From Balanoglossus misakiensis (Eukaryota; Animalia; Hemichordata), in contig CM082576.2 of NCBI GenBank assembly GCA_040954595.2, forward strand, positions 8,807,129-8,871,128: a stretch of DNA of 64,000 nt, in the 5' to 3' direction. How positions within the stretch are numbered: position 1 is the first letter of the stretch; each line of letters opens with the position of its first letter. The notes under the pieces were generated by a model. That model was given only the letters and a program-made list of their open reading frames with translations. It was not told the origin of the DNA and did no database searches. Both the position numbers and the translations under genes were made by a program. This document shows, one piece after another, positions 12,350-62,495 of this stretch.

Positions 12350-12436
12350 CACTCACACACACACACACTGCACAAAACAAATCACACACAAAACCACACG
12401 ACACAGCAGTACTATTTCCTGCACCAATTCTTTATT
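12350..12436 (-). terminator. Probable distal poly(A) site of the SNAP-25 gene (about 3.5-kb 3'UTR after the last terminal exon)
   Basis: AATAAA on the - strand at 12436-12431, followed by a GU-rich downstream element (the + strand CA-rich tract at 12350-12405). Confidence 0.55.
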
Positions 12437-15400
12437 TTTCAAAGCAACCCAACGAGAAATTGACTCACACATAATGAGATAATATTGAATGTAACATGGT
12501 GGATGAGCTGTGAAACTTCAAGTCTAATAATATAACTGTATATCAGATGATAAAGAGAGAGGAAAAAAAGTAAATGTGAAAGTGTAACCATCAAATTCTA
12601 AAATCTCAATCTGACAAACTCGTTATGATGCAATCAAAACAAACTATGTTACAATTTTTTTGTATTATTCTATGTACAACACATATTATGTAAAAACTAA
12701 GACTGCAGCCTTCCATGTTGCTGGCAGGTCATCATCACCGGGATGAAGTTTTTTCTTCTTCTGTACTCAGTTCACCCGTAACTGTCTTCTCTCGCCCGCT
12801 TCCTTTTGAAACTTCCTCTTCCGACTGCAGTGTGTGCAAATCTTCCTAAACGATGCCAAGATTAAACCACCTGTTTTTGACTACATGTATACTGGAAGAG
12901 TCTGCAGATTGTAAGTCAAGTTTCTCAAATGATCTTATACAGTTTTTTCCTCTCTGTGCGCGGTTCTCTTCTAAGTACTATTTAGTGAATTCACACTGGG
13001 TAAATTGATCTTTATAATTAACTGTATGTTAATAATTAAGGACATGTATTGCACCTGTTAAGCAAATCTCAACTGGTCTGGCTTGAATGCTCAAAATAAC
13101 AGAAAAAAAAATTTGGTTCGGTTTCAGCGATTATTACATTTTCTTTCGAGGTAGGTGCCGTTTCATCTTGCCTTTCCAAGATAAAATTGCACGACCAGCT
13201 GAACTTTGCTGAATGCTACGAAAACGAGACACACATAAGTAAAGAAATCCTGACATTATACTTAACTAACAAAGTTGCTCTACAGTAACAAAAAAATTTA
13301 AGTACCTGTATTTGATCTCATTATTTGTTGGCTACATAACTCTCAGCTTGCTGGCTATCGGTTATCTTAAGTCAATAAATATGTTTAGGATAATGATAAT
13401 TACAACATGTAGATATGATGACTTTTGTTAAAGATTTCTAGATGGTCTGGTTGGTGGAAGGACAAACACCAGAGCACAAGCAGTACAGGTAACAACAATA
13501 CATCTATGTCTGAGTTGAGTTGTTTCATAAACAAAAACAAAAAAAGTCTGACATCAGATCTAAACAGTACATCTCAGATGTAAATGTGGAAACTGTGTGA
13601 AAACGAAATTACAATTCATCAAGAAAGAAACACAGGAAATCAAGACATCAACCCTGCTCATAAGAAAAAATGCCCAATTTCTAGTCTACTCCGTGCATAG
13701 ATTTGGTTATTCCAAAGTTGACAGAACACTCCTTGGGGGAGGGGGGAGGGGAAGGAAGGAATGACCAAGGGGCTCTTTTTTCAGGATCTGCACAGTGGTT
13801 TTCAAATAACAGCATTATATATTGCACTTGCAGGGTCATGTATGGCAGTTGCTCTGATTTGGATGCAGTCTTTTTTTTCAGTATTTCATGGAAGCTATCA
13901 ATAAAAGGCTTCACATCTAACAGAAGATCAAAGTGAACGCAAACTCGCAAAGTTGAATAAGAATAATCGCTTGGCTTTCTACTCCCTATTGTGATTGTAA
14001 TATAATAATGGGCAAATTACCAACAGAAATTCCTACATCTGCTACTGTCAGCCTAAATACAAGTTTAAACTTTCTTTGTCAAGTTTCTACATGAAAAGAT
14101 TCATTTCAAATAATTGATAACTACTTCTATTCCAGAAATATTTCAACGATAGAAAAGAAGTTCAAAGTATCTGTGATAATCATTATTTTTTTTTATGTCC
14201 AACAGCATATTAACTCCAAAATGCATAAATAGTGTTTCACTTTTTTCAGTAACAAAACAAAACTAACTAGATAACTGTATCACTTATACAAACCTACAAA
14301 TCACAGCACTGGAAGGCAAGTGTAATGAAACAGATGGAATGATTTTTTTTTTGTATCAGAACTCAAACGTAGGAGATATAGAAGGATGATGTTTTTGAAC
14401 GTCATGCTGGGGGCGGGATTTCGTTCGGGAGCTTCTCACAAAATGGCGCCTGCATCCATTTATTTACAGATGGTTCGTACGTTATTTTGTGGTGTGCAAG
14501 AACTCAGATTTGGCTGTACAACATTATGGAATAAACAGTTTCCAGGAAAAAAATTTCTGAATCAATGCAGAAGCACAAGTGGCTTAAATAAAGGAAAAAC
14601 GAGACATAGAACAGAGCTTTAACAAGAATTGGTCTCATCGTGACTGTGCTATCCAGGGTACATTGTACTTGTCTCTAAGCAAAGTGTCTGGTCAGCTTTT
14701 TGCATATAATCTCGTGAACGTCCATCATTGTAAGTCAGAAGAGGAATAACTACCAGCAATCTGGCAACTTACACTGTGTTTGATCAAAGGAGTGTCTTTT
14801 CTCCCAGATTTCTATCACTTTTGCTGCAAAATGATATGTGCTTGATATTCTGCCAAATGACAATCCTGCAGTTTATATATCACTGCAGAAGTATGAAGGT
14901 TGACTCACTGTTAGTAAACATGCAAATGTACACTGGATGACAATGTCACCTTCATATATATATTCTTAAGTACAGATAAACTTACACATCAGTCACTTTT
15001 ACAATAGTTCTTTTTTCTTAATATCTTAGGTTGATCTTTTTGATAGCATGCACATTCCTTAAGTTTACTTTGTAGTTGAAATAGAGTGGCATGGCATAAA
15101 ACTTGTTCTTTTTCAGCTATCTGATGCAAAAAAAAGGCTGGCACTGGGCTTTTTCAGATGCAGCCCACACGGAAAATGGGTAATTCAACTCAATAAAGCT
15201 CTGCTCAACTGTCCCGATGTACACAGATCTGATAACTTCAAACTGGAACAAAGAGTCAAAAAGATTACAATGCTCTAAAATACAAAGCACTGCCTTTTTT
15301 TCAAACACATTCTATCAACCTTTACAATATATGTACACATAGGAATCTTTACATGGCCATTCCTCAGAAATGGAAATGGAAATTAATCTTGCAGAGGAAA

Positions 15401-15974
15401 TACAATAAAAGTGTACAACTCAAGATTACAGAAGATTGCATGGATTGAATGGAGTTGCCAGAACCATGCATCCCCCAGAGAAAAGTATAATCCTTTGAGT
15501 AGAACTGCAGAAATACATGACTGAGGCCTTCAACAAAAAAATATAAGCATAGCTCCAGACAGGAAATGGCTGCTTCACTTACTAAAACACTACTCCATAA
15601 ATTAAAACTTCATCTACCTATATGATACATTCCTGTAAACTACTGATTGTTTGTGTTTGGCTTGTCAGTCAAGATTTCTGCCTTCTCTCTAAATCGAGAG
15701 TTGGGTTCTCTCCCCGTTGACTTACTCTACAACTGTTCACCCCCGATTCCCAATGGCATGACTCAATCTGGCCGGCAAAGTTCGCTTGGACTACAGTATC
15801 ATGTTGGGTTTCCGAGGGGGGTGGTCAAAGGTCAACTGCTGTCTGCACGTACCTGGGAATATGCTTTTTTTTCCTTTTGCATTTTTAGTATGATTTCTAG
15901 GGGGGCAATAATACTGACACATTTACAAACTACCTGGCTTTCTAACCCTAAAGTGAATATCTCTGCCACCTCCT

Positions 15975-16043
15975 CTACTGTTTTCTGAGAATGTCCTTTG
16001 CCCTTTTGTCGGCAGCTGTGATGCGGTCATCGAGGGATCCAGC
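15975..16043 (-). CDS. SNAP25: SNAP-25 alternative last exon 8e (most distal): [22 protein letters not shown]
   Basis: Pyrimidine tract + ttatag acceptor, phase 0. Keeps R191/I192/A195/R198/A199 equivalents and ends in TAG. Confidence 0.88.
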   Translation of the reverse strand, partial: AGSLDDRITAADKRAKDILRKQ

Positions 16044-19000
16044 CTATAACAAGGAGATGAGGACAGGGGGAAGAAGAAATAATAAATAATGGGGATAAAA
16101 ACAGAAATATGCCACACATACAAAAATACACGGGCGGACTGGATGGGAAGTACACTGGGAGGCATTTTAAGAAAGACAAAAAAAAAAGCCACTGCTATTT
16201 TTTCTGTTTGAATGGCCATTTCCCTTGCAGATGAAACACATGGTGATCAGCTATCACCAGAGCACATGATGAAAAAATTAAATATGCCCCATCGGCAATC
16301 ATTACTGATTCCGTCTTCAGCAGATTCTTTGCCAAGGTACACTTCATGCTATTTTGGTTTGTAATGAAAGGATCGGGAAAAAAAATTGCGCGCGCTCTAT
16401 GTAAATATTTGGATTAGACGAATCAAATTATTTCAAATTGAGCAATGAGAATTCAAAACAGCCGTCAATACCAGATTATTCATCTAAAGAATTTGAATTG
16501 CTGATATTTGTGAAAGCAAGTCGGCGAATGTTTGCATTTTTCACTTTAATCTTGGAAGTGACTGTGAAATCTAAAACAGATTGAAGCGAATGAAAACATG
16601 GTATGATCAGAAAAACTGCCATTTTCATTGAAACTGGTCTCTGACGTAAATTCATTACTCTCTCATATGCATATTGACGACGTCATGTGACGAGCTGTGT
16701 GACAACACACAATCTGGGATATTACAATTTACACTGCAACGCTGTTCCTATCCTCTCTTGACTATATTACATTATATTACAGCGTTGAATTCATTTGCAA
16801 GGATGTCAGGGGGCCACTCACACAAAAAAAATTCAGTTCATAACTATAGACCAGAAGAGAACATGCATTGTCCAATAGAAAATATGCGCATCAACATTGC
16901 GTACAAAAATTACGGTTGGATAAAAAGAACGAACAAATATATACAGATACATAAAAAATAAAACAACATCCAAATAAGAAACAGGAACACATCAGCTGCG
17001 ACTGGTAACCTAGGAAAATGGCACGTAGAGATTAAAGAGGAAATACAACAGAGAAAATATAAATTAATATTGGATATGGTACAGATGGGATGGGTGTGGA
17101 TGGGGGATAAAACGAAGTGGAGGTATAATGCCCTATGGATGAGAGCTTCTAAACTTACCACTACATGTTATTTTTTTTTTAACTTTTGGACAAATCTCTT
17201 TGCAGTGTTTAGTTGGTTTGACTCACAAGAACATTTCCGTTATGTTGTAAATCGCAGAAAAGAATGCATGGAAAGAGACAAAATGTTAAATGTAGATTTG
17301 GTGGAAGTGAGACGTCACATGGAAAATGAATAAAGGGGTCAGTATTTTGCGTCAGCTTCATAGGGCCATGAAGACATGAAATGATTAAAATGTGAAATGT
17401 TTGCTATTTCCCAGGTTCATGCAGCAACTCTAGTCCTTTAGCAGCTGTTCGGTACGCTTGGTGGCTATACCAATTCGGTCCACATTCAAGCGGCTCTGAA
17501 CATGGGCAATGCACAGTGAGCAGGTGCCAAGTTGGCCAATAGAAACAGACAAACACAAAGAAAGAAAGAAAGAAAAAAGGTCTTATTACTATGGGTAACC
17601 TACTGACAACTACGGAACAGCTACATGATCATAAGGTCAGGAAGTATTACTAAGTAAAGCAAGCGTTTTTTTTTTCAGTTTCAAAGAAGTCGAATAAATC
17701 TCAAAAAGATTTTCCGAAAGCAAAGGATGAAAGCTACACCTGGAAATCTTCACAATTATACTTAGCAATACTTCTATCATTAAATGCAGAATTACTCAAA
17801 AACAACTAGAATTCCAATATAAGATACATGTACATGATTATTAAGTGTGACAAAAGTGATGGTTGGTGTATCAGAACTTAAAAAAAAAAAAAAGAGCTGA
17901 AAGATGTATCTGGCAAATGCCTGGCATTATATATAGACATGAAGGTGGCATGGGCTGGGAAAACCCAGGATGCTGTAGTTCGAGTATGCATTGTGATGAC
18001 TATAGACAGATGTGCCCAATTCTATGAGAAGAGTCAAGTTGCAATACCAGAGTAAAAGTCATGCTTTTGTTTTTTGTGTATATATGCATTTATATTATCA
18101 TTTTGCTTAAATATGTTTTTTTTTTTTTTACCGGGTGATTTATAGAATGGTATACCGACAACAGAGTGCACTGATTTGAGATAACACGCCAAAGAACTGC
18201 CCAATGTCACGAGAGGTTTAGTATTAGTAAATATAGACACAGCAACAACCAGTTAATATGAGAGTGGGGGAAAGGAGAGAGAAAAAAAATAAAAATAAAA
18301 CACTAACAATAGTGAATGAAGTCAATAAATAGATTTAAAAAATATGCCGAGTCATCTGCTTCATGCATTGTGTTATTATTATTTTTTTGTTTTTTGTTCC
18401 CAGCCTCATGCAGCAACTTGGATCCTTTTTAGCTTTGGAGGATCTTGGTGGCCCGAGTGTTGGCCTGACCAATACGGGCAGCATTCAGCCGGCTCTGAGT
18501 TGACGGAATATACAAACCAGACGGGGAGGAAATCATAGAGGACAACAATGGACCAGCAGATATGCACACAGGAATAATAAACAGAAACAAAATTTCGTGG
18601 GGGGGGGGGAATAATGTACCACCAGATAGACACACACGCACACACAAAGAAAGAGAAAAAAGCTGTATTACCATAATGCACACTAATCATTGAGATGGGA
18701 GTCTACCACAGGAGGCATACAATATCTAAAGCACACAGCTTTTGCAAAAAGTCATGGTAAAAGCAGAAATAAACAAAAAATACACCGAAATTAATTTTCT
18801 TTCCTTATGGTGTATCAGCAGTGGGTCAAAATGAAAACCAAAAGTTCATTATTGTAAGTCATAACCATGGGATGAAAGCAAGGAGCTATGTGCTTACATA
18901 TTGCATACATTTCACAAAACTTTGAAAGCTTTGAATCAACTGTGATTATTTTTTTTTAAATAACGATGGAATTCGAAAAAACAGGAGCATAAAAGGGTAG

Positions 19001-22000
19001 AAAATGAAAAAAAAGCCCCGTCTGAAAATTAAATTCACAGGAAAAGTGGTTTAATGAATTATCTGAGGAGGGTTATAGTGGGATTGCGGGGTTTATATAA
19101 AAGTCACACTTCTAGATCATATGCTGAAGAAAGAGACACAGTATATAACCACAGGTGTGAGATCCTGACAGTTATGTTGGTGGTTATTTTGACATGCAGA
19201 TTGTATTTGAAAATCAACTATGTCTATCGTTTTCCTGGATGTCCAACAATTGAAAGGAGAGAGAGAGAAAGATGGAGACACAGATGATGGTGGTGGCAGT
19301 GGTGATGATGATGATGACGACGATTATGATGATAATGATGATGATGATGGTGGTAATGATGATGTAGCCTAAACAACTTTTAAGTAAAATGTGCCAGCAC
19401 ATAAGAAGGTTACTGTTAGTGAGTTGAAACTTCTGGAGAGGAGTGGACTTGACATGTGGCCGTGCACAATTTGTCTATAGACACTGGATTATGGCTTCGG
19501 CTTATCTTTATGAAGGATTTGACTTGCTCGGGTGTTAGCTTTCTCAATTCGTAAGACATTTGAAGAAGCCTGATAGAGGTAAGAAAAGAAGAAGTATAGA
19601 AGGAGAGAAAGTTGCAGTTCATGCTCAGTTGAAAAAAAGTTAGTCCAAAACAGCGACAAAAAATACATCACCACTACCGGTACAACCACAACTTTGACAC
19701 TTTTCCACAATTTGGGATGTGCGTATAGTTTTTACTTTTATTTTCAGGGGCTTACAATACGGGCAGTTCTTTGTGCACACGACATCTCCACTTTCAAAAA
19801 GTCACTAGACAAATGATCACGACAGCATCAAAAAGTGCTTTGTGCATAAGTGAGTCAGTAGTCTGGAGGAGTTGGAGGGGAGGGTTGGAGGCGAGAGATG
19901 ATTGAAGGTTTGGGGTTGATGACAGGAGGAGGAAGGAGGGGGTTGTATCAGGGCTGGGTATGAGGTGATGAACTGTGATGGCTGATAACCTGTGACTGGG
20001 ATTGTTATCAAAGAAAAAAGATTTGTAGAAGCACATAAAAAATAGCGCGGAAAATGTTGAAATTTAAATAGGAATAAAATGTAACTATTAATTTCAAAAG
20101 GGAAGCATTGATTCTATTACTAAGGTTAAATTGCAAGTTGGAGTTAGACTGGTCTCTAGAATGTTAGTTATAGGATTCATTATTTTTACTTGAAAATTTG
20201 ATGAAAAAAAGCCAAAATATCTTGTTGTATATTGACGGCATGTGTACACCCACTGAAAACACCACCGTTCCCTTGGTTGTTGTGCAGAAATGTGTGAGTG
20301 TACACAGTCTTGTCTTCATCATGCAGCAGTGAGCGTTTTCGATAAAAAAAATCCACACCTGTCCATGAGTGCACATACACATATTCGCATGCCTAGTCTT
20401 TGAGTAGTTTTGCTGCACGAGTGTTTGCAACCGTGAGACGTTGAACATTGGACTCAGCCTGATGGTTGGGTGCGTCAACAAAGTTTCGAGTGATAGAAAA
20501 AAAATTCATAAAAAATTCATAAAAAATAATTTCAAATCAAAATTTGAAAAAAAAGAGAAAGCAATAAAGACAGTTTGTCAGTACAAATTCATTTGAGATA
20601 ATGCAGAATCTGAAAAGAGCCTAGTAACTCTACTAAAGTTTTTAACTTTTTTTATTTAGACATCCCAGTCGGCACTAGAAGAAAAAAATCTCGAGTTTAT
20701 CAGATTTGTTGTTGGGGGAGATCATGATGGAAGATGATGGAAGAATGAAAAGATGAGATGATGAAAAGAAGAGTGTTGGAGGAACATCAGACAAGAAGAG
20801 AGCTAATATGGGAGGTCTGCTACAGTGCATCAATGTGTGAGACACAGACACAATCTACGGTACGGCAAACCGGTTCCAGACTGAAAATACCTTGCAGGCA
20901 AAAGACACACACTAAAGAGAGCGGCTAAGAGTGTGAGGAGAGAGAGACTGCGAGAGAGTTCTCCGAAGTCTAGATAAGTGCCACTCGAGGAGGCTATACA
21001 CACACTCGGTACAAGTTGACACAAGTCAATCACGATATTAATAAACACACGACGCAGTTGCCATGGTCACAAGAAACTTCCCTTTTAAGAGTGTTCTGGG
21101 GGCAGGGCGACGGGTGAGGAAAAACAAATGCATGGCAGACATTCAGTTTGATTTTTCTGCACTTTTATGAGGTTCCCTGATGATTTTCATGTGCATGTCT
21201 TGCTGAAAAAAAGTTACGGATTCCATCCATCCCTGTTTTTTCTGTAAATGGGATCACCCCAAGCATTTAAAAGGCAGCAGGCGGTTTGTACCAAATTGTG
21301 GTAGGGGAGACAGAAGTTACAGCTGACCATGGCACATACTGCGATGTTTTATTAATGTTAGTCACAGTTTCACAAGTTCTGTAATTATGCTACGTTGTCT
21401 AAGGTTCAGGATAAGTTAGGACTGGTTAGACTGAGTTGATAATAGTTACTGGTATTGGGTATTTGCTGCATCTACAAGTATAGAGATGAGGACGTAGTGT
21501 TGGGGGAATTTACGCCTACTGCGTGAGTGGGGGTAATTGCTGAAAAAACTGTTACGCTGAGTGACGCATCTACACAGTGGCAATCGTGATTCAATCTACA
21601 GAAGCAAAGATTATGGGGTGTGTTTAAAGAGGCAAACTATGAGAGTCTAAGTGGGACAGACCGGCAACAGCAACTACTGGAAAGAAAGACATATGTAAGT
21701 GCAGGGGTAGTGGGGAGACAATTCTCTTTTGAGTAAAAACGTCATGTGGTTCTGTACAGTTGTTTTACTTGATTCTGTGTAAGACAATTGCTGTGATGAC
21801 GGATTACTCTGAGAGAAATATCTCCCCACCAAAACATTCCCTACAGTTCACCGGACCTGCCAATAACGACAATAACCTCACCAGTCAGTGCACTGGAAAG
21901 GGGGAGGGGGGAAGAGGAGGGGATATGTAAACAGGCAGGAGCTCTCCTCCACTGTAATAAAATTCTATGACAACCATATCAATCTACATCGGCCCTATTA

Positions 22001-25000
22001 AAGAGACGGAGAGAGACAGTTAAGACCAACACAGTACTGAAGGACACATCCGTGCACAACATCACAGCCTTCAAAAACCAGGCATTCTCCGTGCTGTTGA
22101 ACAGAACACTATATCACCTAAAGGGAAAAACTTGTCAAACCAGGTGGGATTACACTGGGAGTGGGCGAGATCTGTATACTGCAGGCAATCTCAATCTCAA
22201 GCTGCTATCATGACGTTTGTGGGGTTTTCACAAACAGGAAGAGAAAAAAGGTAACCGTGAAAATAAATTGGTTTAATGGAGCAGCTTTTGAAGAGATTGT
22301 CTCAGCACACAAACAGAGATCAGTGTTACTATTTTCTCTGCGGCTATCACAGTTTTATCACTGTATCTTTTTTTGTAAATTTATATTCCCAGAAGTTGAA
22401 ATGTAACATTAGCAATCCAGAAGTTATTGGTTAAAAACAGGTATTCTTGACGTGCAATGAAAACAGTAACAAAGTCTGATCTTACGATAACAGGGGGGGG
22501 GGGGAGAACTAACAACAGGTAGTGGATGGTTACAGCATGGCAGACAGAACCTACCTTGTCATTGATGCGGTCAACCTGCTTGTTCTGCGCTTCAATTTCG
22601 TTGCCCATGTCAAGCGCCATGTGCCTCAAGTTGCCCACAATGCCAGTGACTTGTCCAAGGTTGTCGTCCATCTCGTCCTCCCTGGCATCATTAGTTATCC
22701 TGTCATAACACCACAAATGATGTAGTAAGTTCTATCAGTACAAACTGTATGAATTGTCCCACTAGCTGACTTCTCTATTTTTTGTTCACTGTATAACTCC
22801 CTTAGACACATTTTATCAGTGTTGTGCCATCAACATTGGCCAATGCAATGCAACTTGAATAATAGTTTGGCTGTGAATCCCACAAAGAATGAACACACAG
22901 AAAGTATGCCACATTTGATGCATTTAAATATTTTACAGTACCATCAGAAGAAAAATAAGCATATCTCTGAAGTTGCCAATACATTTTTTCGCATTTTGTT
23001 ATTATCATTGCTATTTTCTGGATACCGGTAAATTGTGGAAGCGAAAGTAAATTGTTTGATTATTTTTTGAGGGGTGGGGGCCCCCAGAAGCTGGGAGACT
23101 GACCTTGTGACAATAGTTGTTTGCCCAGTCAAGGCGTTCCTATCATCTGAAACCCTTGCCGGTTGACTTGACACCACTTTGCCATCTTCCGATGACTTCC
23201 ACGTCTTCTTGTAGTCATCACCCTTCTCAAAATTTCCAAAGCTGTTTAAAAAAAATCAATCAAAAGAATGAATTATAATCCTGAGTGCTTGCAATCTGGT
23301 TTATTCGAACAACTGGATGAATAATGTTTGGGACGTGGAGACAACATGCAAAACATGATACACATACAAACAAGCACTGAACCTCGTCTAACCATAAGTG
23401 TTATTGAACCTTAGTCTGACGCTTGCAGCAAAAATTTGTTTCCATTTTCTTGTCTCTAGTTATGTACACACGTCCGTCCATCCATCTTTAGTCGTGCTAA
23501 AACTACGGATGTAGCCAGGAAGTGTTACTCTACAACTATCCAGTATTCATGAGATGTGGCATGCTTCGGACAAAACTAAGGGTGAACATGGAACACTGAC
23601 AGCACACACACAAATACCCTGATGAGTTTTCTGAGCACTTTTCAACAGTAACTGAGTTATATGAAATCACAGCATTTGCCTTTTTTTGACTAATTCTGAA
23701 AGGTTTCTCAGCATGTATCCAATTGCTAACTTCTACTTAGCATCAATTTCATGATTTTGTAAAATCAATGAAAACTTAAAAATTGAACGACTGATGACAA
23801 TTTTTTTGTTATTTGCGTTTAAATCAGTTTTCATTAATATATGGATCTGGCTCATACCAACTGCAGAAATCTTAAACACAGCACATCTTTCATATTAATC
23901 AGCTGAGAGAATATTAATCATGAAGATCAGATTCATTTTGCTTTGGTCTGTGAAAATTTACAGCAGCTGGAGACTCATCCCAGTTACCGAGAAACTGTTG
24001 GGCGTGAACTCGCACGAAACTCAACCAAAATGGAATAAATCCCACACATTCCAGCAAAGATCAGCTATCAGACACATACACAGATTTGTGCGGATTAAAA
24101 AAAAAGAGAGTCAAAAAACATTATCTGTGGCTGTGCAGCTGGGAGTCTAAAACCCCACTCAGCAATGACAAATTACTCATTTCCTGCAAACTCCATTAAG
24201 CACACTGCTAAGTCAAGCTGCGGCTGGTTGTGACTCTAATAGCAGCGTGTGCCCAAAGTCATTAAGTTTTTCGGAGTCCAACACGACACAGACAAACTGG
24301 CTCCCCGATCGACCGACCGTGGTGTCTGTGTGTGTCGTGGAGTGATTTATCAGAGTATAAAGCAGTCCTCTCCAGAACGGAAACCCAAGCCCCATGCATT
24401 ATTCTTGTCGTGTGCAATCTGACAACCGTAATGCTCAAAATCTCTGCGAATCCAAATACTGGCTGTACGTGTAATTATGTTGACTGTACCTGATGGGAAT
24501 CCACTAACAAGACAAATAATAGTTTTGGATCAACCGACTTATATCACACAATTTATCATGCTCTACTGGGGGGGAAAGTGCACTGCATTCAAGTTCAGAC
24601 GGCTTGCCAGGAAATTACAAATTGGATGTTTTTTCTGTCTAAGTATTTCTGGTAATAGTGGCGTTCACACTAGACAGCTCTACTCTGGTCTTTGGATTGG
24701 CCCAATTCTATATACGGTACACAGGTCCAGGCCTGGGCAGGAGTATGTAGTTCGATCGACACAACTCAAGAAGTGGGATGGGCATAGACAGAAATCGTAT
24801 CCAAAAATTGTACATTAATTTAGGCCAGTTTTAGCACTCTTGTGCATGACCTTAAGAGCAACTATGAGGTTTCATGAGGAAATCGTTAATCATTACTGGC
24901 CACGTACGGAGACTTTCTTATTCTGAGAACACCCTGGATGCAGATTGAAATTTAGCTTGTACTAGATAACTGTGACCCTGTTCGGGCAACATCCTGTTTG

Positions 25001-28000
25001 CTGCCTGTGCCAAGGAGCACATTAATCAGAGTTTTCCCACAATCTGCACTCGATGTTTAGAGTAAAATCCGGACACTAACTGCGCTGTGGAGCGTCGACT
25101 CCCGATAAAAACACCCAACCGTTATCTCTTCAGAGATGGAACTGTGAATACTTACTTCTTGCACGGACAAACACACAATCCGCAGCACTTCTCCAGACCT
25201 GTCAGATTCTTCTCAGCCTCTCTCATATCAGTATTGATTTGGTCCATGCCTTCCTCGATACGATCCAATTGCTCTGCAAAACAATGCCAATATAGAACTT
25301 TCAGTTGGAGTTTCTGCACATTACCCTGGTCATGCAGCAATAACCATCTCCAGTACTGCAGCTTTGAGACACAAAATATCAAACATCTAGGTTAACATAG
25401 AGGCTTTAAATATTAGTTGCTATTTTATCTAATAGATGTAAACACCAAACTCTCGAGTTGCTAGTCTATTTTTACACTATTGTATAAATCCACTATCTAC
25501 ATTATAAATTCAACAGTATTTACTATTACCAATTTAAATATTTCAGTTAAATTCCTTCGATCTCTCTCACTCTGCACCTTCATCTTCAGTTTAACCACAA
25601 TGCATTCGATTTTCAAAATTTTGGAGACAATTGTTGATTTTGATGTAAAAAACAACAACAAAACTTACACACAGAAAGTTCAGGTCAGTTTTTCAGAGTT
25701 CTTCAAATTTATACACGTCCCCAAAATTTCAAATTTGAACACACGTGGCTAGACTGATGTGAATCCAAGAAACTGATTGGAGGATGTCCGAACTACTCAA
25801 TGCAAGGAGGGTAATTTCTCGCTATCCTGTTACAAATACTACTGCTAGTTCCTGAAATACACCAACAACAATAAAACAGAAGATCTTCTAACTAACTTTT
25901 TACCAATAGTATCTACAATAATGCACCAACTTCTCAAAAATGCAACTAACTACCATTAGAGTGCTTTAATAGTATTCAAACATATCAGTCCTTCGATCAT
26001 CATGCTAGCCAGAACGTCAAGCACACATTTGAATTACCAGACTGGTGCTATTCATTCTCCTACCGGTACTACCGTACTTGGGTGAGAATTGCTACATAAA
26101 CTAGTGACAGGGTGGATTCTAAATGCTAACACCATCACATCAGTATGTATCCAAAACATTTCCTATGCTTCAAACAATTGTGCCCTATATCTCCAACTGT
26201 CCATGCATCTAAAACACATAGGTCTAGCTAATTTACTGGCCCAGGTTTTTTTTAATGAAAGTATCTTTGGGAGAAGCAACAACTAAATTTAGTCCAGCAT
26301 AATGTGCAATTCATCATGAAATAAAATCCAGTATATCACGTTTAAATTGATATTATGTCCATCACAATACTAATGAACCATTTAATATGACCTTTGTGTT
26401 CAACGCTGATAGTCTAGTGAACTTTGCAGATGATAATCCATTACACCTTCCGGAGAATCGGCACTCTCCATTTTACTCAAGGGACGATGCATTTAGTATA
26501 ACCCTCGCAAATGTCTGATTCTATTTTTTCCCTTCAAATCTGCATCTGATGGTAAAGCGATGCAGTTGGGGGCATATTTTCCAGACTTTTATGTGACACT
26601 TCCAGCTGTGGACGTTGTTTAAAGAGACACTGCCATGCTTTGCTGTCTGAGCACTAGGTGATAACTTGTCTACAGGTCTTTCTTAGAAGATGAATGAAAT
26701 ACACCATCTGAAAAGCATGGATGATGTTGACATCGCAGGTATATTGCTTCATCCAGCAACATTTCATTCACATTTTGAGAGAAGTGTTCAGACACTGTCA
26801 CTGCCTCTAATTGGGTCATAATTTGGCTAATCACAAACTGTTCAACCTCAAAGAAATGGATTTATTGAAGGAGAAAAAAGAATAGCTGATGATACATTGA
26901 AATGTTTGGAAGGTGTAGCTTGAGTGGCATCTTGATATTAACCCTTTCACCACCATGGTTAAGCCCAAACCCATTGTTTTCTGTGGTAAGTTTGGACCTC
27001 TATAGAGTGAACGGGGGCGAAATGGTTATAAGCTGAGCTAGTTGCATTATTCGCAATATGTGCTGAATAAATTGTTTGGCAGAAGAGATTTCTGCAAACT
27101 GATGAGCATGATGAGTGGGTCATAGCAGCACAGTGACTCTGCTTTTCAGTCTGAAGGAAGTGAGGTCGACTGATTTCATTACGCTCAGACTTTAAACGGT
27201 GAAAAGTGGCATTGTTAAAGATGGTGCTTTTGGATGTAGCTATATGTGCTTTAAATCGCCATCAAATGGTGCTGAAAGCAGAACATGCCTTGGCTGTGCT
27301 CGACACTTTACAGCTGTGAATGAGCCATGCAATTATATTGTGCAGACTGGTTTGCTGGTAGTAAAAATGGGGAATTTCGAATTTCTGCGCATTGCATGCT
27401 CACATTAAAAAAAAAAAGATGGCCAAGCGACTCTTTCTACGACAGTGCACCTGAACAGCAGCAAGATTGCATTCGGTCAACGATCCAATTTTTTGCTATC
27501 TGTCGGTATGGGGGACACGAACGAGATCACGATGATCATGCAGCCTCATCTCCATGCGGGTCAGCATCTCAAAAGCAGATAGCATCGCACAGATACCGAG
27601 TGTTTTTCAAGTCCGCTGAGAATGTACATAAGTCCCCTCCATCTATGCCGTGACCTTGCTGTATTAATCCTCATTAAGACATATCTGACATCATCATCAT
27701 GTCCGTGTTATAGTTTCAATTCACACGCAGGAACGACATGGCGCTCCCGTTTGACATTTCACCCTTAGGCTAGTCGCGCGCGCACACAGACAGGAAGTTA
27801 CTCATGCATACTACAGAGAGCATACAACGTGCGCTAAACGATGCACAAACTTGGAATTTATAGCAGCGTGCATGATACATGTGACTACTCGAGAGAGATA
27901 GAGAGATGACTCTGCATGCATTAAAGTTGTCATTGGATAATTAAGCACAGCACGGCACACCAAACACCGATAACATGTAAGGGGTGGGGGTTTATTCATT

Positions 28001-31000
28001 TGCATATGAATATAAAGCAACCATCAATATTGAATTTTTTTTCTGCTTTTAAAAACTATAGTTAGTTCTTGTCTATGCTTTATTATAGATGCTGACAATA
28101 GAGTAGAAAAAGCAGACAAAAGACCTGCGTAATGGGTTGGACAATTTGCACATTAAGACAGCTAATGGGATGACAGTGTCAACTTAAATGGGACTATCAT
28201 CGCCACAGACCACAAAATACGTTGTGTGTAATCGCCAGACTACTTGCTTGAACAAGAAAAGAAAAAAACACTCAGGAACATAAAATGGGTGGAGGGGAGA
28301 GTTTCAAAAATAAATTAAAAACACTTTTGATCCGTCACCTCCTTGCTCATCCAACATTACAAGAGTGTTGATGCCAGCCTCTTTGCTCTGATGAAGTAAA
28401 GTAGAGCAGCAAGTGCAAGAGAGAGAGAAAAGAGAATATCAAGAGAAAGAGAGAGAAAAAAACAAATAATCTGTTTAGGAATACCGTATATAAATTGCAA
28501 ATGATTTCACCCAGTAATTACTGCACAAACGCAACATCCAGCCGTGATTTACAACTGCATACTCTTTGCTTTCATAGGTGTTTTTATGTCATACAGGAGT
28601 ATATTTTACGATTGATAGTTTGGGCAGTGTGTTGTTTTGCGCAGTAAGTACTGGGGGTGTGATGAGGCAATGTGCCTCAGTTCAGATATCCAAAGTCCTT
28701 ACCTCCTTGTTCATCCAACATAACTATAGTCTTGATACCCATATCCTGACTCTACAAAGTGTAAAATAACACGTACAGCAGGAACAAGCCACGGATAGGA
28801 GCAAAGAAACCAGGCACACATATAATATGAACGATAAACAAAAGAGGGGTTAGGATTCGGGGGAACTGGGGGGGGGGGGAGAAGGCTGGGGAGTGTGGTT
28901 GCTAGGTCGGATGGCTTAAAGATTGGTAGAATTACTGTAAAACATGAAATTTTCGCGAATGAAAAATTCTCCCGAACTTCCCGAGAGCCAGAAAAATGAG
29001 GAAATAAATTGACAGTGCAGTTAGTGAAATAACCTCTGTTCACCTCTGCGAAAATTTCCCATTTTACAGTACATGTATATATCAAAACTAAATGGCTGTT
29101 GGCAGCCCTTCAGTGAAATTTGAAATAGTTAAATCATAGAAAGGAATGTAATCTTGGTATTAAAAGAGTATATATCACACAGACATTTGACGTTCAAGTT
29201 AAAAAAAAAATCAGAGAGAACAGGATGATATACCATGTACGGTATGCTTCTGTAAAGAGTTCACACACATGCTACTTGTTGGCTTTCTACAATATATACA
29301 TGCATCCAAACACACACAGCCAACCAGCCACACAAGTGATGGCATATGGCATATTGACCCAATCAAAACATATGGTGAGCATTATTACTTCCAAATATTC
29401 ACAATACTGCAAATAATCAATAATATTGTCAAAACAAAAATGTGAAAACCACGCAGGCACAGTTTATAGAGCTTGCCATCAATCTAAATTCTTTCAATTT
29501 TCCAGTTTGTAGTTTGGCTTGCCTTTTATAACTGTATGTACTCTTGAAACAGTATTGAGGATTTATTTTGGTATTATTCCCTGACAACTATTAATACAAA
29601 TATGGCAGCTCGTTGGATGCGAAACTGGTGTGTGAATTGAGGCAGGGGGTCAGGGGCAACATGTATTCATGAGGCTAGGTCCAGTTTGTATCTGAATGCA
29701 ATGAAATAAAGTGCACTCAATATTAATACCCGAGGAATGATAATCAATCAGGATTAAGCTAGCATTTTAATCAATGAAGAATAAAGGTGCTATTATTTTT
29801 TCAAGGTGACACCTGTCATTGTCATTAACTTCATTCATCAATTCATAATAAAAATTTCTCTGCGTACAGGGAGATGGTACGACGGTTCTGCCCTTTATGT
29901 TTTAATGATCACAGTTTTTGACTGAAGTGGATGAATATATCTCGCAGAAGTGAAGTACTGTTGGGTTGAATGGAGGCCAGACTCAAGCCGTTAAAATCTA
30001 AGCTCTATTACTACTTCACTCCCCAAGAATCAACATGCAATGCCAGTCACATATCTGAGCCTCTATCAATGAGCTTACAGTCGGGTGAAACGCAAAGTGA
30101 TATGTGTAACTGCGGTCCATTTCACGTCATCAAAGTCAAGTCAGGTGACACAAGCCTTGCACATTAGCCATTTTACTTATGGGCAACTACATCATCTTAA
30201 GAGGTCAAGACAAGAAGTTTCCTTTTCAAACATTGATGAAGCCGCTAGTTTTGCGTCAGCAAAGTTTCTCAACTGGAACACTTAGAAAAACATCAATGCC
30301 GCTGTCATGGTGGAACAAGGGCCGATTTCATTAAAAGAAAAGACTTCAAGCACTGTGGATGAATATTAATAAGCTCCATCAAAAGTGAAAATGGGTAACT
30401 GAGATCTGACAGGGTAACAGAAAGAAGAATGTCTGGCTACTGCTTGGCAGTGGTCAACAAGGTGAATTCAATTTAATTTGGCAATTTTCAGGAGAATTAC
30501 CATCGCCTTCTGCTAGATTCTGCCTAAGTTAATTAGATTTCTGGACACTGTAATGTAGGATAATGTTTAATGATTTGTCAGAGTGATTAAATCTGAAATT
30601 TAACGTGGGCGGACCTGTCAATATCTGTTCAAAAATTAAAAAGTTAACAAAAAACGTAATTTCTCTCAGAATTGCCAGTCCAGCAACATGTGATCTGTCA
30701 GCTTAGATTACTAAAAATCTGTAACGTGACTGATTATGACAGATCTGACTGTCGAAAGGCATTAATGATTCATTCATGGGTTTTTAATTTCGCCATTTTC
30801 ACCAGATGATAAATCAATTCAAGCGAACCCCTGTGAAACTGTAAAAGAAATGGTAGAACGTATAGATTAATGGTAAAAATCAATGAATTTATAATTATAT
30901 GCCCCTAACACTGTAATAGCAAAATTAAATTCAAGTTAATTAGCATTGGTGTGTTTAGAGTATGTGGGAGTGACTACACTGCTAATTTAACGATAAATAT

Positions 31001-34000
31001 TATTATAGTTCAAGCATCCACTTAACTACATTTTTGCGTGAAACAAATTATAATTACCGGGTAGACCAAACATTTTTGGTTTGTTAATTCCTGATAGCCT
31101 TGTCCAAAGCCTACAACTGATCTTTCATATAGACGCAATGTTATTTGTTACTCTTACAATCTCACTAAATCAATTGAAAACTTTCAGCATGTACTTTGTG
31201 GTAACAAGCCAAAGTACACTTTTAGAGATTATTGATCCTGGCATCTCAATCAATGCATCGATGGCTTACACAACCCAATATCCACAACCGATCAATGTCG
31301 CTTGCAGTTTAGAATAACACCTAATGAATAATTCATGTCATATTATTGCACAAAATTGATGTGCAAATGTTTATTTTCGGGCATGAATCAAGCTTTCATC
31401 TTCCCCCCCCCCCCTTCATTTTTTACATCGTAAATTTAGCCTTGCTTTCAATACATCAGTCATAGTGACGTTACATGTGCATCTCTGAATTTGGCAAATA
31501 CTTTATGACATGGAAATGTCATAGCATTTGACTTGGTGGCATATGCCCATTCAAATTAGCTGTGATTCACACACCAATTTGCATTCATTATTTCACCAAA
31601 TGGAACAGTAATTGACCGACGTTTACCGCGACTTATTTTGTAACAGGTTAAAATCAGCATCCACCACTGATGAAAATCCTTTCTGGTTGAATATCATTTT
31701 GGCCGACATTAAATGTTTAGGATGCCCGTATCAATTCCTTTAACGGTACTTATCAGATGGCTATCAAATTATGGAAGCTTTTGTGTGGCTGGCACTGTGT
31801 AATACAGGAAACATTCACAATCATATCGAACATACTGGCTTACACTCAACGTAGCACACAGAGAATGGTGGAAAGAACACAGAAATGTAAAAGGAAGACT
31901 CTTGTATCCAAAGCTTGCACACACAAAACAATCTGGTCATAAAATGGACATTATATGTATAATTGCAAATTGGAAGTGATGTCCACCAACCTCTTCTGCC
32001 ATCTGCAGCATACGCCGTGTACTCTCCAGGGACTGCAGAAAAAGGGGAGAAAAAATGAAATAAATACTTGTGGACAAACATTTTGGGCAAAATTAGCCCA
32101 GTCTTGGATTTTAAGTATTTTGTAATAATTTGAAGTGTGTCCAGTTGAAGAATAGTTTGTAGAGTACTTCATACAGATACAGATTAAGTATACTAATGTG
32201 TACATTAGGTAATCACTAATACATCAATTGAAATAGTCTAATTTTTTCATTAACTGTTAAAACAAGCATTATGGCAGGTGTGAGAGATGTCTGGTACAGA
32301 TAAAAGATTCCATCATTTTCCCCCATGGCAAGCGATTGTTATGCAACCATGCCAATCCAAATTCAAAAGATGAATGCAGATGTATCACGCAACTCTCGTA
32401 CATATCATTTTGAACAATTCATTCATGCACCATTTTAAAATTCCAATCATAGCACATAAAAGTTATAAAAATTAAAATATGACTGTGCTTCACACTTCTT
32501 TTGTTCAAAGGCCTCTCAATATTTCATCCTGCTTTTTACCAGAAGATAACCCTTGCAATAACAGTAACAAGGCTAGTAAGAGGGAGTTGTATAAAATGTG
32601 ATTGGCTCCATCATGCAGGGAATATGCTACTTATAGTTGAGAGTGAAGATCATAAAAGAGGGAAAGAGTAGTTTTAACCCTTGGGGATTAAAACATTAGA
32701 TTATATGGGTTAATGTCTGGTTAGTCTTGATACCTTGCTTCCGGTAATTAAACCATCAAATGAAGCACTCGGTGATGCAAGTTATTTGGTTAAAATGTTT
32801 TAACACCATACACACGCTGATTGAAAGTGTGTACATTTATATGTATCACAGGTAAGGCTTTGATGTTGTGTTATAAAAGGGCAGTGCATCTGGGAATGAC
32901 TGAAATGTCAGCTGGACTGACATGTAACCAAGAAGGGTCCTCTTTGGTTAATCCATCTTTATCACAGTCTTTCTCCCGACAGATTTCTATTCTCAATTCA
33001 AGCCTTCATAACTGCTTGATAGTAAAGCAAACACTTGGAATTGACGTTTTATCAGACTTGGTATCTCCTACCACCAATTCAGCCAGCAGCACATTTCAAT
33101 TTCGCACAACGTACTGCCTACATGGTGACAAAGAATCTCTCAAGGTGAGAGAATTAAAGAAAGGGAAGTGACACATTGAAAGATGAGTGGGTGGTTGTTC
33201 CAAATGACTACGACTGCTCTTTTGGTACTGTTTTTTATTTTATTTTATCTCCCTAAGTGGTTGTAATCTACTACTACTTTATCACTGGTGGGGTTGGTAG
33301 ATGAATGATGTGCACGCTTCGCACATTACAATTTTTCATGATGACAAAAACTTCACGTTGCATCAAAATTTATTGTGACATGTGATTTTTCGTGAACAAT
33401 TAAAACTTGTTTCGTACATACCGGTATTACTAACTTATAGAATGTTAATCGTTTCCTGCATTCCAAGGATTTTTTTTTTGCACATGATATGCGTACATAT
33501 ATGCATGCATGTGTAGATCAAATTTGTACCACCTACACCACACTGTAAAATCTGGCTACTCATGTTCCTAAACCAATACATGTACCTCCTACAATTAGTA
33601 TGCGACTCAGGTGGTGTGCAGGGGATGGACATTATTGACATTTAGTGATCGCCATCAGGCATCTAAAGTGTAACAGCCACGATGACCACGACTGCCAGTC
33701 ATATTGGCTCAGTTCAAGTTTCTGACTGCAACAATCGATGGCATGAATAATAAAATATGACTTTTAGCCGCAATTGACATCAACTCATGGTTGTTATCCG
33801 CGAGGATCACAGCCAATGATGGATGCACTAATAGTTCTCATTTTATAACAAACATCCCCTGTGCATGATCTACATCACGTCTTTCCTGAATATTGACACA
33901 CTACATAAATTTGTTACGAATTACTTCTGACGACAAGCTCTTTTCATCAATTTATTGGCTCTGTGTGTCCTCTAATTCAAAGTATGCTGTCGCTCAGTGA

Positions 34001-40000: not shown

Positions 40001-43000
40001 TATTCTGTTTCAAACATAGTTAATGGACAAATTTACATGACTTCCGACTTGTTATGATGTGCAGAAGATGACTGCACCATCACACTAGGCAAACGCTGCC
40101 CACTAGATTTGAACATGCCAGAAAAAATGTCTTTGCAAATACCACCTGTACTGATTAATGTTAGTACAGCGCTTGATCCACAACCACATTCAATCAAAAG
40201 ATTAGATTTTTACAGCGGCAGATAAACATCTGCATTAGATGAATCTTTTCAAATGTACCCTGATAAACATCTGCATTAAACAAATCTGTTTAAATGTTAA
40301 ATTTGTACTAAAATAACTTTCATATCGTCACATCGTTGCTACACTTTTAAATCAACAAACTCTAACATGTGTTATTAAAATATACTGAGCAAATACTTTG
40401 CAAAGTAAGCACCATCTTTTTTACGTCAGAATTTCAATTACTTTTCCCAATGGAGCCTTTGAATTTGATCGAAATCGTTACAACAAACAGAAGGTGCTGT
40501 GCACTTGTGGGCATTGTGACAATTGTATTCCACTATTGATATAGATAAATTAGTGAAAAAATCAAGCCATGTACAACACAATTGTCACTTCCAACCAGAT
40601 GAACAGCTACATGTTATTGAAACAGCGACACAAAAGAGGACGGCAAAAGACACACAATGTGAATTTTGCATTAAACCATTTCCTGCTCCGGCTTTTGTGC
40701 CATGCGATAAAAACGGATGAATATCGTCACACTCCGTCGAGATGCAACCATCACTGAATACCCCATGGCACACAGTGTTACTGTCGGTTCGCTTGGTACC
40801 TTTGAAGCTTGGGCGTCAAAACACCACAGATGATTGGAGCCGAATAATATGCCAAACGTCTGTCGATACCATGAATGTGCAATGACAATAAAAAAAATTA
40901 ATTGAGATCAATTAATATTACCTCCAATATTTTGATATCACCTGGTCCAAGAGGCACTTCCTGTTTCTGAGTTTGTTCAGAGTCGGGGGTTTCATGATTT
41001 TCGGCCGGCATGACTGTGGTAATACAGTTTAGCCAACTATATATATATATATACAAAGTATATACTACCGCAAAAAATGTGGTAGCAAGATTCTCAATAA
41101 ATATGTATTTACAGCCCCAGAATGTCTGGGAAGGTACTCCACATGTCTTGGGAACGTTACCAGTACTGAGAATTCACACTCCTCGTGCTAAAAACAGCAC
41201 CATCTTCAGATCGACACGATCAAGTATTGAATGTGGTTTTTCAGCAATTAAGCATAAAAATTATCAAATCATGTGGTAGCAGTGATGATGATGATACACA
41301 CTATCCCACAAATAACTGCATCTGCCAGCGGATGATGACTTTATCCATGGATTTGTCCTGCGTCAAAGGCACCAGTTTTCCACAGACACCAGTCAGTCGT
41401 TGAGATTCCTCTTCAGAACGAGAAACGGCGTGTGTGCGTACAGGAGTGTCTGATTGTAGGCCACTACACGCTGCATAGTTTTCATTTGAGCTGACACTGG
41501 CATTCAAACTGCACCTGCTAAAGCATCAGTTGTACTCCTCCCCTTCCTCGTACGGCGAGACCCACGGACAGGATGAAACCTCCAAAAACAGCAGTTGAGA
41601 TGTAGAGCCACGATTCGTGTCAGACCGCACGATTGAGAAAACATGTGTGAACTTCTGGTGAAACAGCTAGCAAGCACATCGGTGGTACTTGTGATGCATG
41701 TCCACAATAACAGGATTCCTGATTAACGGCAGCGCTGGCCACACAGCGGATGTGACACTAATGTGCGTGGTAGTTTTTTTTTTTTTTTTACATAATTAGA
41801 ATAAAGTGGGCATATCCAATGAAATGTGCCTATAGATCTCACATTTGATAGTGCTGGATCATGCGGCAATTCATCAAACGTGACGGTATATGCTGATCAG
41901 TAAAGGATCATGACGATCAGAAACAGGGCCATTGTCTCCATTGGCGCTTGCACGAAGGAGATCAGGACGAGCAGACACAGAGCGATCTTCAGCGTCCAAT
42001 GCATTGACTTCCTACAGTGCGCTTATAGTGTTGCCTTCCACTTCAACGCTATGCATGTTCACACCCACAACAAAGGGGACGAACATGAATATTAAACAAC
42101 ATCACTGCACAGGCCTGCATAATTAGACACCAGGATTATACCCAGTTCCCGCCAGTGAAATGTATGCACTGCTGAACACGACTACTGCAGTGCGCTGCCA
42201 TGGAAACATCAATAAACCAATTGTATTGGCCGTGCACCTTTTATTTAGCTGGCTCAGCTCATCAAACGAGCTGCAATGTCTGCAAAAACGCAGAATGTAC
42301 ATCAATCTATATTTCTTTTTGATATTTGCATATATGTTGAGTGCGTCTCGATAGCAACCTGTGAATATTCATGATGGCATCTAGCTAATAATATCATCAT
42401 TCATGTTGAATGTTTCGCGCACAGGAATATTCACAGCAAGAGTGGCCTGTTTTCAGACATCCACCATACAGAAGTGTGCATGGAAGCAGCCAGGAATGTT
42501 CTGAATACGGAATCACGTTGAAGAGCTAAAGGCTTTTACCCCACACTTCCATAATGGCAGGCCGGCATGAATAATTGATATTAGGATCTCTCCTACGGCA
42601 ATAAAATGTTTCCAGAGTTTCTGTTGAAGCCGTCATAAAATTTTCAATTTGGTTTGGTATGCTCTACGGTTTTTAACAGTTCACGGACTGGGGAGAATGT
42701 CTGGCAAACCATTTTATGACAGACACGGCTTTAAATTTAAAGACATCGCCAACACAAACACTACATCAATGACTGGTTTTTAAAAATATCCTGGCTGCTT
42801 TGAGAAAAGACCACCTGTACACGTGTAATAAGTGTTTATTGAAATGACTTCGCAGAACATTTATTTCTGGCTTCTAAATATAAATTTAATGAATTTATTG
42901 CAGTTGTTTAATCTTTCCCCATGGAACTCCCATACATCTGCTTTGAATTTTAACCAAACATCGGCTGTGGGCAGTGGCTATTAGGCTAGCTTAAAAAATA

Positions 43001-56354: not shown

Positions 56355-56533
56355 CAGTCAAACCTGTCTATAGTGGCCAGTCAAGGGACTTTACCAAACT
56401 GGCCTTTATAGACAGGTGGTCTTTATAGACAGGTTAATTTATACACGTGTAAATTGCACAGGGACTGTAACTAAGTGGTCACTATATAGAGGTGGTCACT
56501 ATATAGAGGTGGTCACTAACACAGGTTTGACTG
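56355..56533 (+). mobile_element. 179-bp Tc1/mariner(pogo)-type MITE, copy 1
   Basis: TIR CAGTCAAACCTGT...ACAGGTTTGACTG, TA TSD, internal 17-bp repeats GTGGTCACTATATAGAG. Confidence 0.9.
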
Positions 56534-58794: not shown

Positions 58795-58973
58795 CAGTCA
58801 AACCTGTGTTAGTGACCACCTCTATATAGTGACCACCTCTATATAGTGACCACTTAGTTACAGTCCCTGTGCAATTTACACGTGTATAAATTAACCTGTC
58901 TATAAAGACCACCTGTCTATAAAGGCCAGTTTGGTAAAGTCCCTTGACTGGCCACTATAGACAGGTTTGACTG
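58795..58973 (-). mobile_element. 179-bp MITE, copy 2 (inverted)
   Basis: Reverse complement reads identical to copy 1; TA TSD. Confidence 0.9.
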
Positions 58974-59012
58974 TACAAGGAAATCGCTTTTCGAAACACA
59001 ACCTGATAGGTA

Positions 59013-59191
59013 CAGTCAAACCTGTCTATAGTGGCCAGTCAAGGGACTTTACCAAACTGGCCTTTATAGACAGGTGGTCTTTATAGACAGGTTAATTTAT
59101 ACACGTGTAAATTGCACAGGGACTGTAACTAAGTGGTCACTATATAGAGGTGGTCACTATATAGAGGTGGTCACTAACACAGGTTTGACTG
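59013..59191 (+). mobile_element. 179-bp MITE, copy 3
   Basis: Reads identical to copy 1; TA TSD; 39 bp from copy 2. Confidence 0.9.
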
Positions 59192-62268: not shown

Positions 62269-62495
62269 CTTATGTGTTTCTGTTACTGTCTGTAAAGTCG
62301 AAATGTTCACCAAATTTACGGATCCCGGAACAGCTTCGCCGAGCGAAAATCCAAAATGGCTTCAGAATGACGTCACGGGGAAACTCCTACCTGTCGATAT
62401 CAGTGTCAGCTACAAGGTGTACGATTGGTCTAGAATAGCTATCGCGTTGCTTTCAAACACTCTAGTCCAATCAGACAATGTCTTAGTCCAATGTT
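62269..62495. promoter_or_regulatory. Probable (bidirectional) promoter with a candidate non-coding first exon of SNAP-25 (donor at 62268, - strand)
   Basis: CpG-enriched. Perfect CRE TGACGTCA at 62368-62375, YY1-type CAAAATGGCT at 62352-62361, CCAAT boxes at 62424, 62467 and 62488, and a - strand AAG|gtattt donor. Confidence 0.55.

Follow-up and report, generated by a model that had tools for sequence, protein, structure and literature searches.

A SNAP-25-family gene of Balanoglossus misakiensis with exons duplicated at three places and a predicted role of exon 4 in synaptotagmin coupling

Layout of the locus and detection of its duplicated exons

A stretch of 64,000 nucleotides (nt) from the genome of the hemichordate Balanoglossus misakiensis (GCA_040954595.2, contig CM082576.2, positions 8,807,129 to 8,871,128 of the forward strand; hereafter the window) carries a SNAP-25-family gene on its minus strand, whose 3' two-thirds form the region considered here. 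A first-pass annotation had drawn attention to this region and bounded it at 28751 and 15975, which are the first base of exon 4a and the last base of the stop codon of the most distal last exon. We regard it as probable, with real room for doubt, that exons of this one gene were duplicated at three places, that the gene likely encodes a set of Qbc-SNARE isoforms and that exon 4 is the part predicted to set coupling to synaptotagmin. The parts of the gene are listed below; last exon denotes residue 185 to the end, numbered by alignment to a 206-residue protein.

54146..54320, minus: exon 2, part of the 5' untranslated region (UTR) and the canonical first coding segment (ATG at 54214, 23 codons)
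40922..41011, minus: E2', alternative first coding exon (30 codons, GT donor, phase 0)
31991..32032, minus: exon 3, constant, 42 nt
28703..28751, minus: exon 4a (E4a), Q40/I47 type, 49 nt, AG..GT; residues 39-54 in vertebrate numbering
28339..28387, minus: exon 4b (E4b), K40/L47 type, 49 nt, AG..GT
25156..25273, minus: exon 5, 118 nt, single copy; C-terminal half of the first SNARE helix and a cluster of five cysteines
23104..23241, minus: exon 6, linker, 138 nt; Pfam SNAP-25 (PF00835) at 49.4 bits, cut-off 25
22555..22699, minus: exon 7, 145 nt, constant N-terminal part of the second SNARE helix
20393..20458, minus: last exon L1 (proximal), coding part; AG acceptor, phase 0, own stop
19489..19569, minus: last exon L2, coding part; basic, proline-containing tail extension, AG acceptor, phase 0, own stop
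18429..18494, minus: last exon L3, coding part; AG acceptor, phase 0, own stop
17430..17495, minus: last exon L4, coding part; AG acceptor, phase 0, own stop
15975..16043, minus: last exon L5 (distal), coding part; AG acceptor, phase 0, own stop
12436..15974, minus: likely 3' UTR of L5, AATAAA at 14464 and 12436; predicted end

Exon 2 is bounded by an AG acceptor and a GT donor, and the canonical N-terminus of Ptychodera is 87% identical to its product. E2' substitutes for the N-terminal stretch upstream of exon 3 and resembles the N-terminus of Ptychodera isoforms X1-X7 (87.5% identity, E 3.6e-25) and that of Saccoglossus (61%; both by tblastn). The two exon 4 copies are of equal phase, lie on either side of a 315-nt intron and are identical at 11 of 16 amino acids and 36 of 49 nt (73%). 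Inclusion of both copies, or of neither, results in a frameshift with early stops, and all ten joins of one exon 4 to one last exon are open and encode 208-213 residues. In pairwise comparison, the five last exons share 7-11 of 21 amino acids. The first-pass annotation had counted at least ten isoforms; these stand as ten open combinations, not as observed transcripts, and the count missed E2', with which two first coding exons, two exons 4 and five last exons would allow 20 possible products.

Splice sites, reading frames and profile scans all confirmed the earlier claim of two exon 4 copies and five last exons in one locus. In an acceptor-anchored scan, the exon 4 copies score 58, against 16.5 for the next candidate, and the five ends 25-42, against 9.6 for the next and 10.4 for the best antisense candidate. 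Profiles built from 139 distinct exon 4 and 219 distinct last-exon peptides of relatives were run over six frames with no splice site required, and gave two exon 4 matches at 52.9-55.3 bits, with the next at 5.0 and the best antisense match at -0.2, and five last-exon matches at 28.7-47.3 bits, with the next at -4.8 and the best antisense match at -3.3; each of the seven begins immediately 3' of an AG. The wide gaps to the next and antisense matches argue that these seven cassettes are not chance resemblances. Two independent scans of the window found no second copy of exons 3, 5, 6 or 7 and nothing beyond two exons 4 and five ends; for exon 5, the next-best candidate scores only 13. Alternative N-termini of the echinoderm and mollusc types had no convincing match in the window, the enteropneust type being the only one matched. 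As a PP5 gene starts directly downstream at about 11407, the last-exon array is bounded at five.

Family membership, conservation and spread

The gene is a member of the SNAP-25/23 subfamily of Qbc-SNAREs. Its Ptychodera orthologue aligns over residues 2-206 to SNAP-25 chains in PDB (E 5e-79), and exon 7 is 94% identical to that of Ptychodera and 88% to those of Glandiceps and Saccoglossus. Zero-layer glutamines are present in both exon 4 copies (Q53) and in exon 7, and the linker carries the cysteine cluster and no membrane anchor; inspection of the ten translations revealed no long hydrophobic stretch. In a quick-method tree built on the constant region (40 rows by 148 columns, axolotl SNAP-23 and a frameshifted pipefish model left out), the gene groups with three enteropneusts (Shimodaira-Hasegawa-like approximate likelihood ratio test, SH-aLRT, 96) and lies outside the vertebrate clade of SNAP-25 and SNAP-23 (SH-aLRT 95) and not within the SNAP-23 clade. 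The five-cysteine linker had been described as constant, which is borne out by its position in the single-copy exon 5. It had also been taken as a signature of SNAP-23, and here a comparison of 19 sequences speaks otherwise: the count does not mark SNAP-23, as five cysteines also occur in a mite, in a centipede and in the SNAP-25 of lamprey and hagfish, and a frog SNAP-23 has four.

The evidence for use of the cassettes is comparative, and the records of relatives are annotations. In Ptychodera flava, 13 RefSeq isoforms are drawn from two starts, two exons 4 and four ends. Three enteropneust records are identical to E4a at 15 of 16 amino acids and to E4b at all 16. L1 is identical to its Ptychodera counterpart at 20 of 21 amino acids and to short-ended last exons of echinoderms at 13-15 positions; L3 shares 19 positions with Ptychodera and 15 with Saccoglossus, L4 shares 18 with Ptychodera, and L5, the type closest to the single ends of amphioxus and sea anemone, shares 18 with each of three enteropneusts. 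Six of the seven cassettes thus have counterparts in relatives, and L2 has no match. The pattern is the one expected if each cassette is under selection: counterparts in other species agree at 15-16 of 16 or 18-20 of 21-22 amino acids, and neighbors within the gene at only 11 of 16 or 7-11 of 21. L4 is a tandem duplicate of the L3 unit, at a spacing of about 1 kb and with shared flanks (repeat families D2, D6 and D10). Zones free of AG extend over 52-166 nt at all seven cassette acceptors, compared to 20-37 nt at exons 2, 3, 5, 6 and 7. The view that the variants arose by tandem exon duplication within one gene, and alter both SNARE helices, is upheld.

The same view had treated the arrangement as a peculiarity of one animal, which does not agree with the arrays seen in echinoderm, mollusc and insect records. 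At least two exon 4 forms were found in 26 genera or species groups (3 hemichordate, 7 echinoderm, 10 mollusc and 6 insect), all chosen for showing two exon 4 forms, to which a sea cucumber adds one; three forms exist in oysters, one brittle star and bees. Two classes recur, K40-E/D41-A42 and Q40-D41 followed by a hydrophobic residue 42. In profile tests over 16 columns, 41 of 43 cassettes were classed correctly with position 40 excluded (leave-one-species-out), and a profile trained on ambulacrarians placed all 14 distinct mollusc peptides in their class (p 0.0025). The reverse test, in which a mollusc-trained profile assigned 10 of 13 ambulacrarian peptides, was not significant (p 0.19). Q40 is the only form in sea anemones (3 of 3) and in three amphioxus species. 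From these distributions we infer that the Q form came first and that the K form was added in bilaterians, repeated duplication with convergence being a possible alternative to a single origin. Records from Drosophila, amphioxus and vertebrates show one exon 4 form per gene. Multiple last exons are likewise widespread (2-3 in echinoderms, 3 in oysters, 2 in gastropods, 2 or more in insects), and L1-like and L5-like ends recur across ambulacrarians, in a last-exon tree whose 22 columns and 70 rows are too short to settle deep orthology. The sea cucumber Apostichopus has, besides its multi-cassette gene, a second SNAP-25-like gene, whose exon 4 is of the Q type and whose end is of the L5 type; this lends no support to the earlier notion of exon duplication in place of gene duplication.

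Several further features surround the gene. The PP5 (PPP5C) phosphatase neighbor extends from 11407 down to at least 8340 in the same orientation, on the minus strand, with very short introns, some of them in-frame, and Pfam matches to PPP5, TPR and Metallophos. Upstream of exon 2, a 183-185-nt element occurs in three 100%-identical copies (56353-56537, 58793-58975 and 59011-59195), two of which form a 400-nt palindrome; it resembles a young foldback repeat of the miniature inverted-repeat transposable element type. The 22-kb intron after exon 2 contains an imperfect palindrome (280 nt) and an 82-nt direct repeat (51520-51799, 38275-38461). A putative first exon without coding sequence, for which two GT donors are possible, lies at about 62270-62400 (minus), and a plus-strand ATG near 62700 may belong to a divergent gene. 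After L2 comes a trinucleotide-repeat tract (19290-19365).

Exon 4, the last exons and the choice among them

E4a and E4b differ only at positions 40 (Q/K), 41, 42, 45 and 47 (I/L), and are identical at positions 39, 43, 46, 50 and 53, which we take to be the inward-facing core layers of the coiled coil. According to Lai et al. (2022), SNAP-25A and SNAP-23 differ near or at the primary synaptotagmin interface by K40Q, L47I and V48T alone (PMC8967716; PMC9258623), and K40 is itself a residue of that interface (PMC8967716). The substitutions K40E and V48F perturb evoked release and leave complex stability unaffected (reviewed in PMC10102358), and neurons with SNAP-23 show asynchronous release (PMC4244210); PMC10578080 and PMC8164606 provide background on the interface and nothing beyond. 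Judged by sequence, E4b looks SNAP-25-like and E4a partly SNAP-23-like at the synaptotagmin surface. The idea of regulated and less-regulated isoforms, raised in the first-pass annotation, hereby gains a concrete basis, as the exon 4 differences fall on synaptotagmin-interface residues that separate SNAP-25 from SNAP-23. It is likely that synaptotagmin coupling is set by exon 4 and that the last exon brings variation to a C-terminal regulatory surface. Some insect and mollusc exon 4 cassettes replace the acidic interface residue E52 with H, Q or G, and would be stronger natural interface variants than those of the window.

E4b is preceded by an 81-nt AG-free, CU-rich, microsatellite-like tract, and its acceptor holds 14 TCTT/CTCT words per 100 nt, being the only one of 1158 intervals to reach at least 13. 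These words, which we take to be the PTBP motif, would fit repression of E4b by PTBP outside neurons. A single exon 4 per mRNA would be ensured by regulated choice together with decay of frameshifted products. Steric exclusion between the two copies was considered as well and is unlikely, given the 315-nt intron and the 81-nt AG-free zone. Competing RNA structures left no trace in the form of a standout inverted repeat around the cassettes (among the 25 longest of 116 and the 25 longest of 35 pairs).

Among the last-exon columns compared over 70 rows, 191, 195, 198 and 199 (R191, A195, R198, A199) are 96-100% conserved, and columns 189, 190, 193, 194 and 200 only 20-29%. L1, L2 and L5 retain Ser187, a protein kinase C site (PMC2151612), where L3 and L4 have Leu, and Lys201, which binds G-beta-gamma (bioRxiv 2022.05.30.494040), is present in L1 and L3 alone. 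The last exons plausibly differ in modulation, not in the ability to support fusion. Each is followed by downstream sequence of its own (0.8-1.4 kb), with raw matches to AATAAA or ATTAAA, not compared with chance level, after L1, L2, L4 and L5. TGCATG, presumably an Rbfox-type motif, is located 7-68 nt past L1, L3 and L4, and 7% of random 120-nt windows hold it; the sites of L3 and L4 are not independent, since these two exons share flanks, including a common 32-nt downstream element of 81% identity that contains the motif.

Taken together, the proposed mechanism would operate as follows. The K40/L47 form (E4b) would be fast, coupled to synaptotagmin-1 and probably neural, and the Q40/I47 form (E4a) older and general-purpose. 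One last exon per mRNA would be selected by competing 3' splice sites and polyadenylation; the zippering core would be kept throughout, and the surface sites (Ser187, Lys201 and the tail for G-beta-gamma) and the 3' UTRs would vary. The choices at exon 4 and at the last exon would probably be tissue-biased, without strict linkage between them.

A number of observations weigh against this interpretation. Its support from other species consists of annotation, in which automated pipelines may join exon choices that lie far apart with no read spanning them. Between L3 and L4 no canonical poly(A) hexamer is found, only variant hexamers, and L2 has no orthologue among the 13 Ptychodera isoforms or the other records retrieved. 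At the interface, E4a retains V48, so that it carries two of the three SNAP-23 differences, and the sea urchin protein O76338, of the K type, bears the label "ovarian," which implies that K40 is not confined to neurons. Teleost SNAP-23-like proteins carry K40 or R40. Finally, Lai et al. allow that the SNAP-23 changes might either enhance or reduce binding, and in their assay Syt2-triggered fusion is supported by SNAP-23 (PMC8967716; PMC9258623).

Three other readings of the array were weighed. The first is a coupled cell-type code, in which exon 4 and the last exon are tightly linked and each cell type uses one defined pair, as the first-pass annotation had suggested. Neuron-type-specific alternative first exons are known for C. 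elegans ric-4 (PMC12084653), the TGCATG sites lie within 70 nt after L1, L3 and L4, and 5 of 40 possible pairs are absent from seven RefSeq sets, among them, in Ptychodera, the K-type joined to the L4 orthologue and, in Amphiura, the short end joined to either Q-type. Nevertheless, 35 of the 40 pairs are modelled over these seven species (7 of 8 in Ptychodera, 6 of 6 each in Acanthaster, Asterias rubens and Diadema antillarum, 3 of 4 in Antedon, 4 of 6 in Amphiura and 3 of 4 in Apostichopus), which speaks against strict coupling. The absent pairs favor no consistent exon 4 type across species, and two GenBank proteins of S. purpuratus combine both exon 4 types with the same last exon. Such pairings are no proof of independence, yet they give a strict code no support, and we consider one improbable.

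Equally improbable in our assessment is that the array mainly serves to swap 3' UTRs, and thereby mRNA stability, transport or level, with minor consequences for the protein. This would agree with the separate downstream sequence of each last exon, with the 32-nt TGCATG-bearing element shared by L3 and L4 and with the retention of core positions in all five ends. However, cassette surface residues are kept between species, as seen for L1 in Ptychodera (20 of 21) and echinoderms (13-15), which makes free drift unlikely, and UTR swapping leaves the exon 4 pair unexplained. It is still less probable that few combinations are truly made and that some cassettes are rare or decaying copies, above all L2, which lies on a long branch (best identity 57%) with no counterpart in relatives, where the records retrieved show one end in Glandiceps and two in Saccoglossus: the frame of L2 is open, its core residues are complete, its AG acceptor is in phase and lies behind a pyrimidine-rich 52-nt AG-free zone, and it scores 39.8 bits; the remaining six cassettes have conserved orthologues. 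An isoform set in which exon 4 affects synaptotagmin coupling and the last exons affect regulation stays the preferred reading.

Relation to known systems and to the vertebrate paralogues

The closest known relatives of this layout are invertebrate SNAP-25 records, namely those of Ptychodera flava (XP_070577767-781), Acanthaster planci (X1-X10), S. purpuratus (O76338 and O44419), oyster and bee. They share the same three variable places, the K/Q pair of exon 4, the L1, L3, L4 and L5 types and orthologues of both first exons, and differ in that the fifth end (L2) of the window gene does not occur among them and that the records are unlabelled isoform lists. In vertebrate SNAP-25, exons 5a and 5b are tandem duplicates dated to early bony fish (Johansson et al., 2008, PMC2581893). 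They likewise form a tandem, mutually exclusive exon of the first SNARE helix within one gene; however, exon 5 is single in the window gene, and the exon 4 pair is found in both deuterostome and protostome records. Two versions of exon 5 were also encountered in the brittle star Amphiura, the lamprey Lethenteron, a model from the stick insect Timema and a third fish SNAP-25-like gene, which suggests that exon 5 underwent more than one duplication, or one that precedes the bony-fish date of PMC2581893. Alternative N-termini by neuron type in C. elegans ric-4 (PMC12084653) and the tandem exon substitutions of STX2 and STX3, old SNARE exon duplications traced to invertebrates (PMC8373072), are single events, as opposed to three stacked places. 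The theme of duplicated exons in SNAREs is known, and the isoforms are already present in the public annotation of relatives. A literature search that covered neither supplements nor subscription reviews found no paper on invertebrate SNAP-25 exon 4 or last-exon arrays or on their fit to the interface, and a look-up of terms in parts of PMC9741552 and PMC4342343 found nothing on the exon 4 or last-exon event; the supplementary exon lists of PMC8373072, PMC9741552, PMC4494069 and insect papers on mutually exclusive exons could hold it.

The vertebrate paralogues SNAP-25 and SNAP-23 are set apart at the synaptotagmin primary interface by K40/L47 and Q40/I47, as are the two exon 4 copies, whereas they are separate genes, divergent throughout, and SNAP-23 has T48 in addition. 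One idea is that the split between them predates the two genes: a bilaterian K40 copy beside the ancestral Q40 would have formed a tissue-regulated switch for fast release, and one cassette would later have become fixed in each paralogue. The process that would tie the exon 4 pair to the paralogues is the separation of splice isoforms after gene duplication, described for CALU, MARVELD3 and CACNA1C/D (Abascal et al., 2015, PMC4494069), in the main text of which SNAP25 is absent. We hold this idea to be doubtful, although less so than the other readings of the array considered above. In its favor, SNAP-25-type sequences of cyclostomes, shark and ray-finned fish are K-like in 6 of 6 cases. Of 117 parsed SNAP-23 matches (of 120), whose named members are all tetrapod, in a sample without SNAP-23 of shark, gar, coelacanth or cyclostome, 114 have Q40 and none K40, and 105 score Q-like with position 40 excluded. 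Against it, the SNAP-23 consensus has A42 (98 of 117), as in SNAP-25 and tunicates, and not the hydrophobic residue of the invertebrate Q cassette, and tunicates are mixed, with Q40 among K-like neighbors. Among teleost SNAP-23-like proteins, residue 40 is K in a cod, a pipefish and a clownfish, R in two gadiforms and V in a sucker, and two of these proteins group with SNAP-23 at SH-aLRT 89. An origin of SNAP-25 and SNAP-23 from a single exon, followed by convergence within tetrapod SNAP-23, accounts for the data no less well.

The layout likely lets one gene tune calcium-triggered secretion, a task for which vertebrates use separate SNAP-25 and SNAP-23 genes. The exon 4 pair provides natural variants for the question raised by Lai et al. 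of how K40Q and L47I affect synaptotagmin binding. Its patch overlaps the segment mimicked by the inhibitor peptide SP9 and the sites of the human disease variants K40E, G43R, V48F and L50S. Should exon 4 act as a switch for synaptotagmin coupling, the mode of release in invertebrates would be regulated by splicing of a 16-residue patch. In that case, records from Drosophila, amphioxus and vertebrates would understate the diversity of SNAP-25, and invertebrate physiology on "the" SNAP-25 would have been averaged over isoforms.

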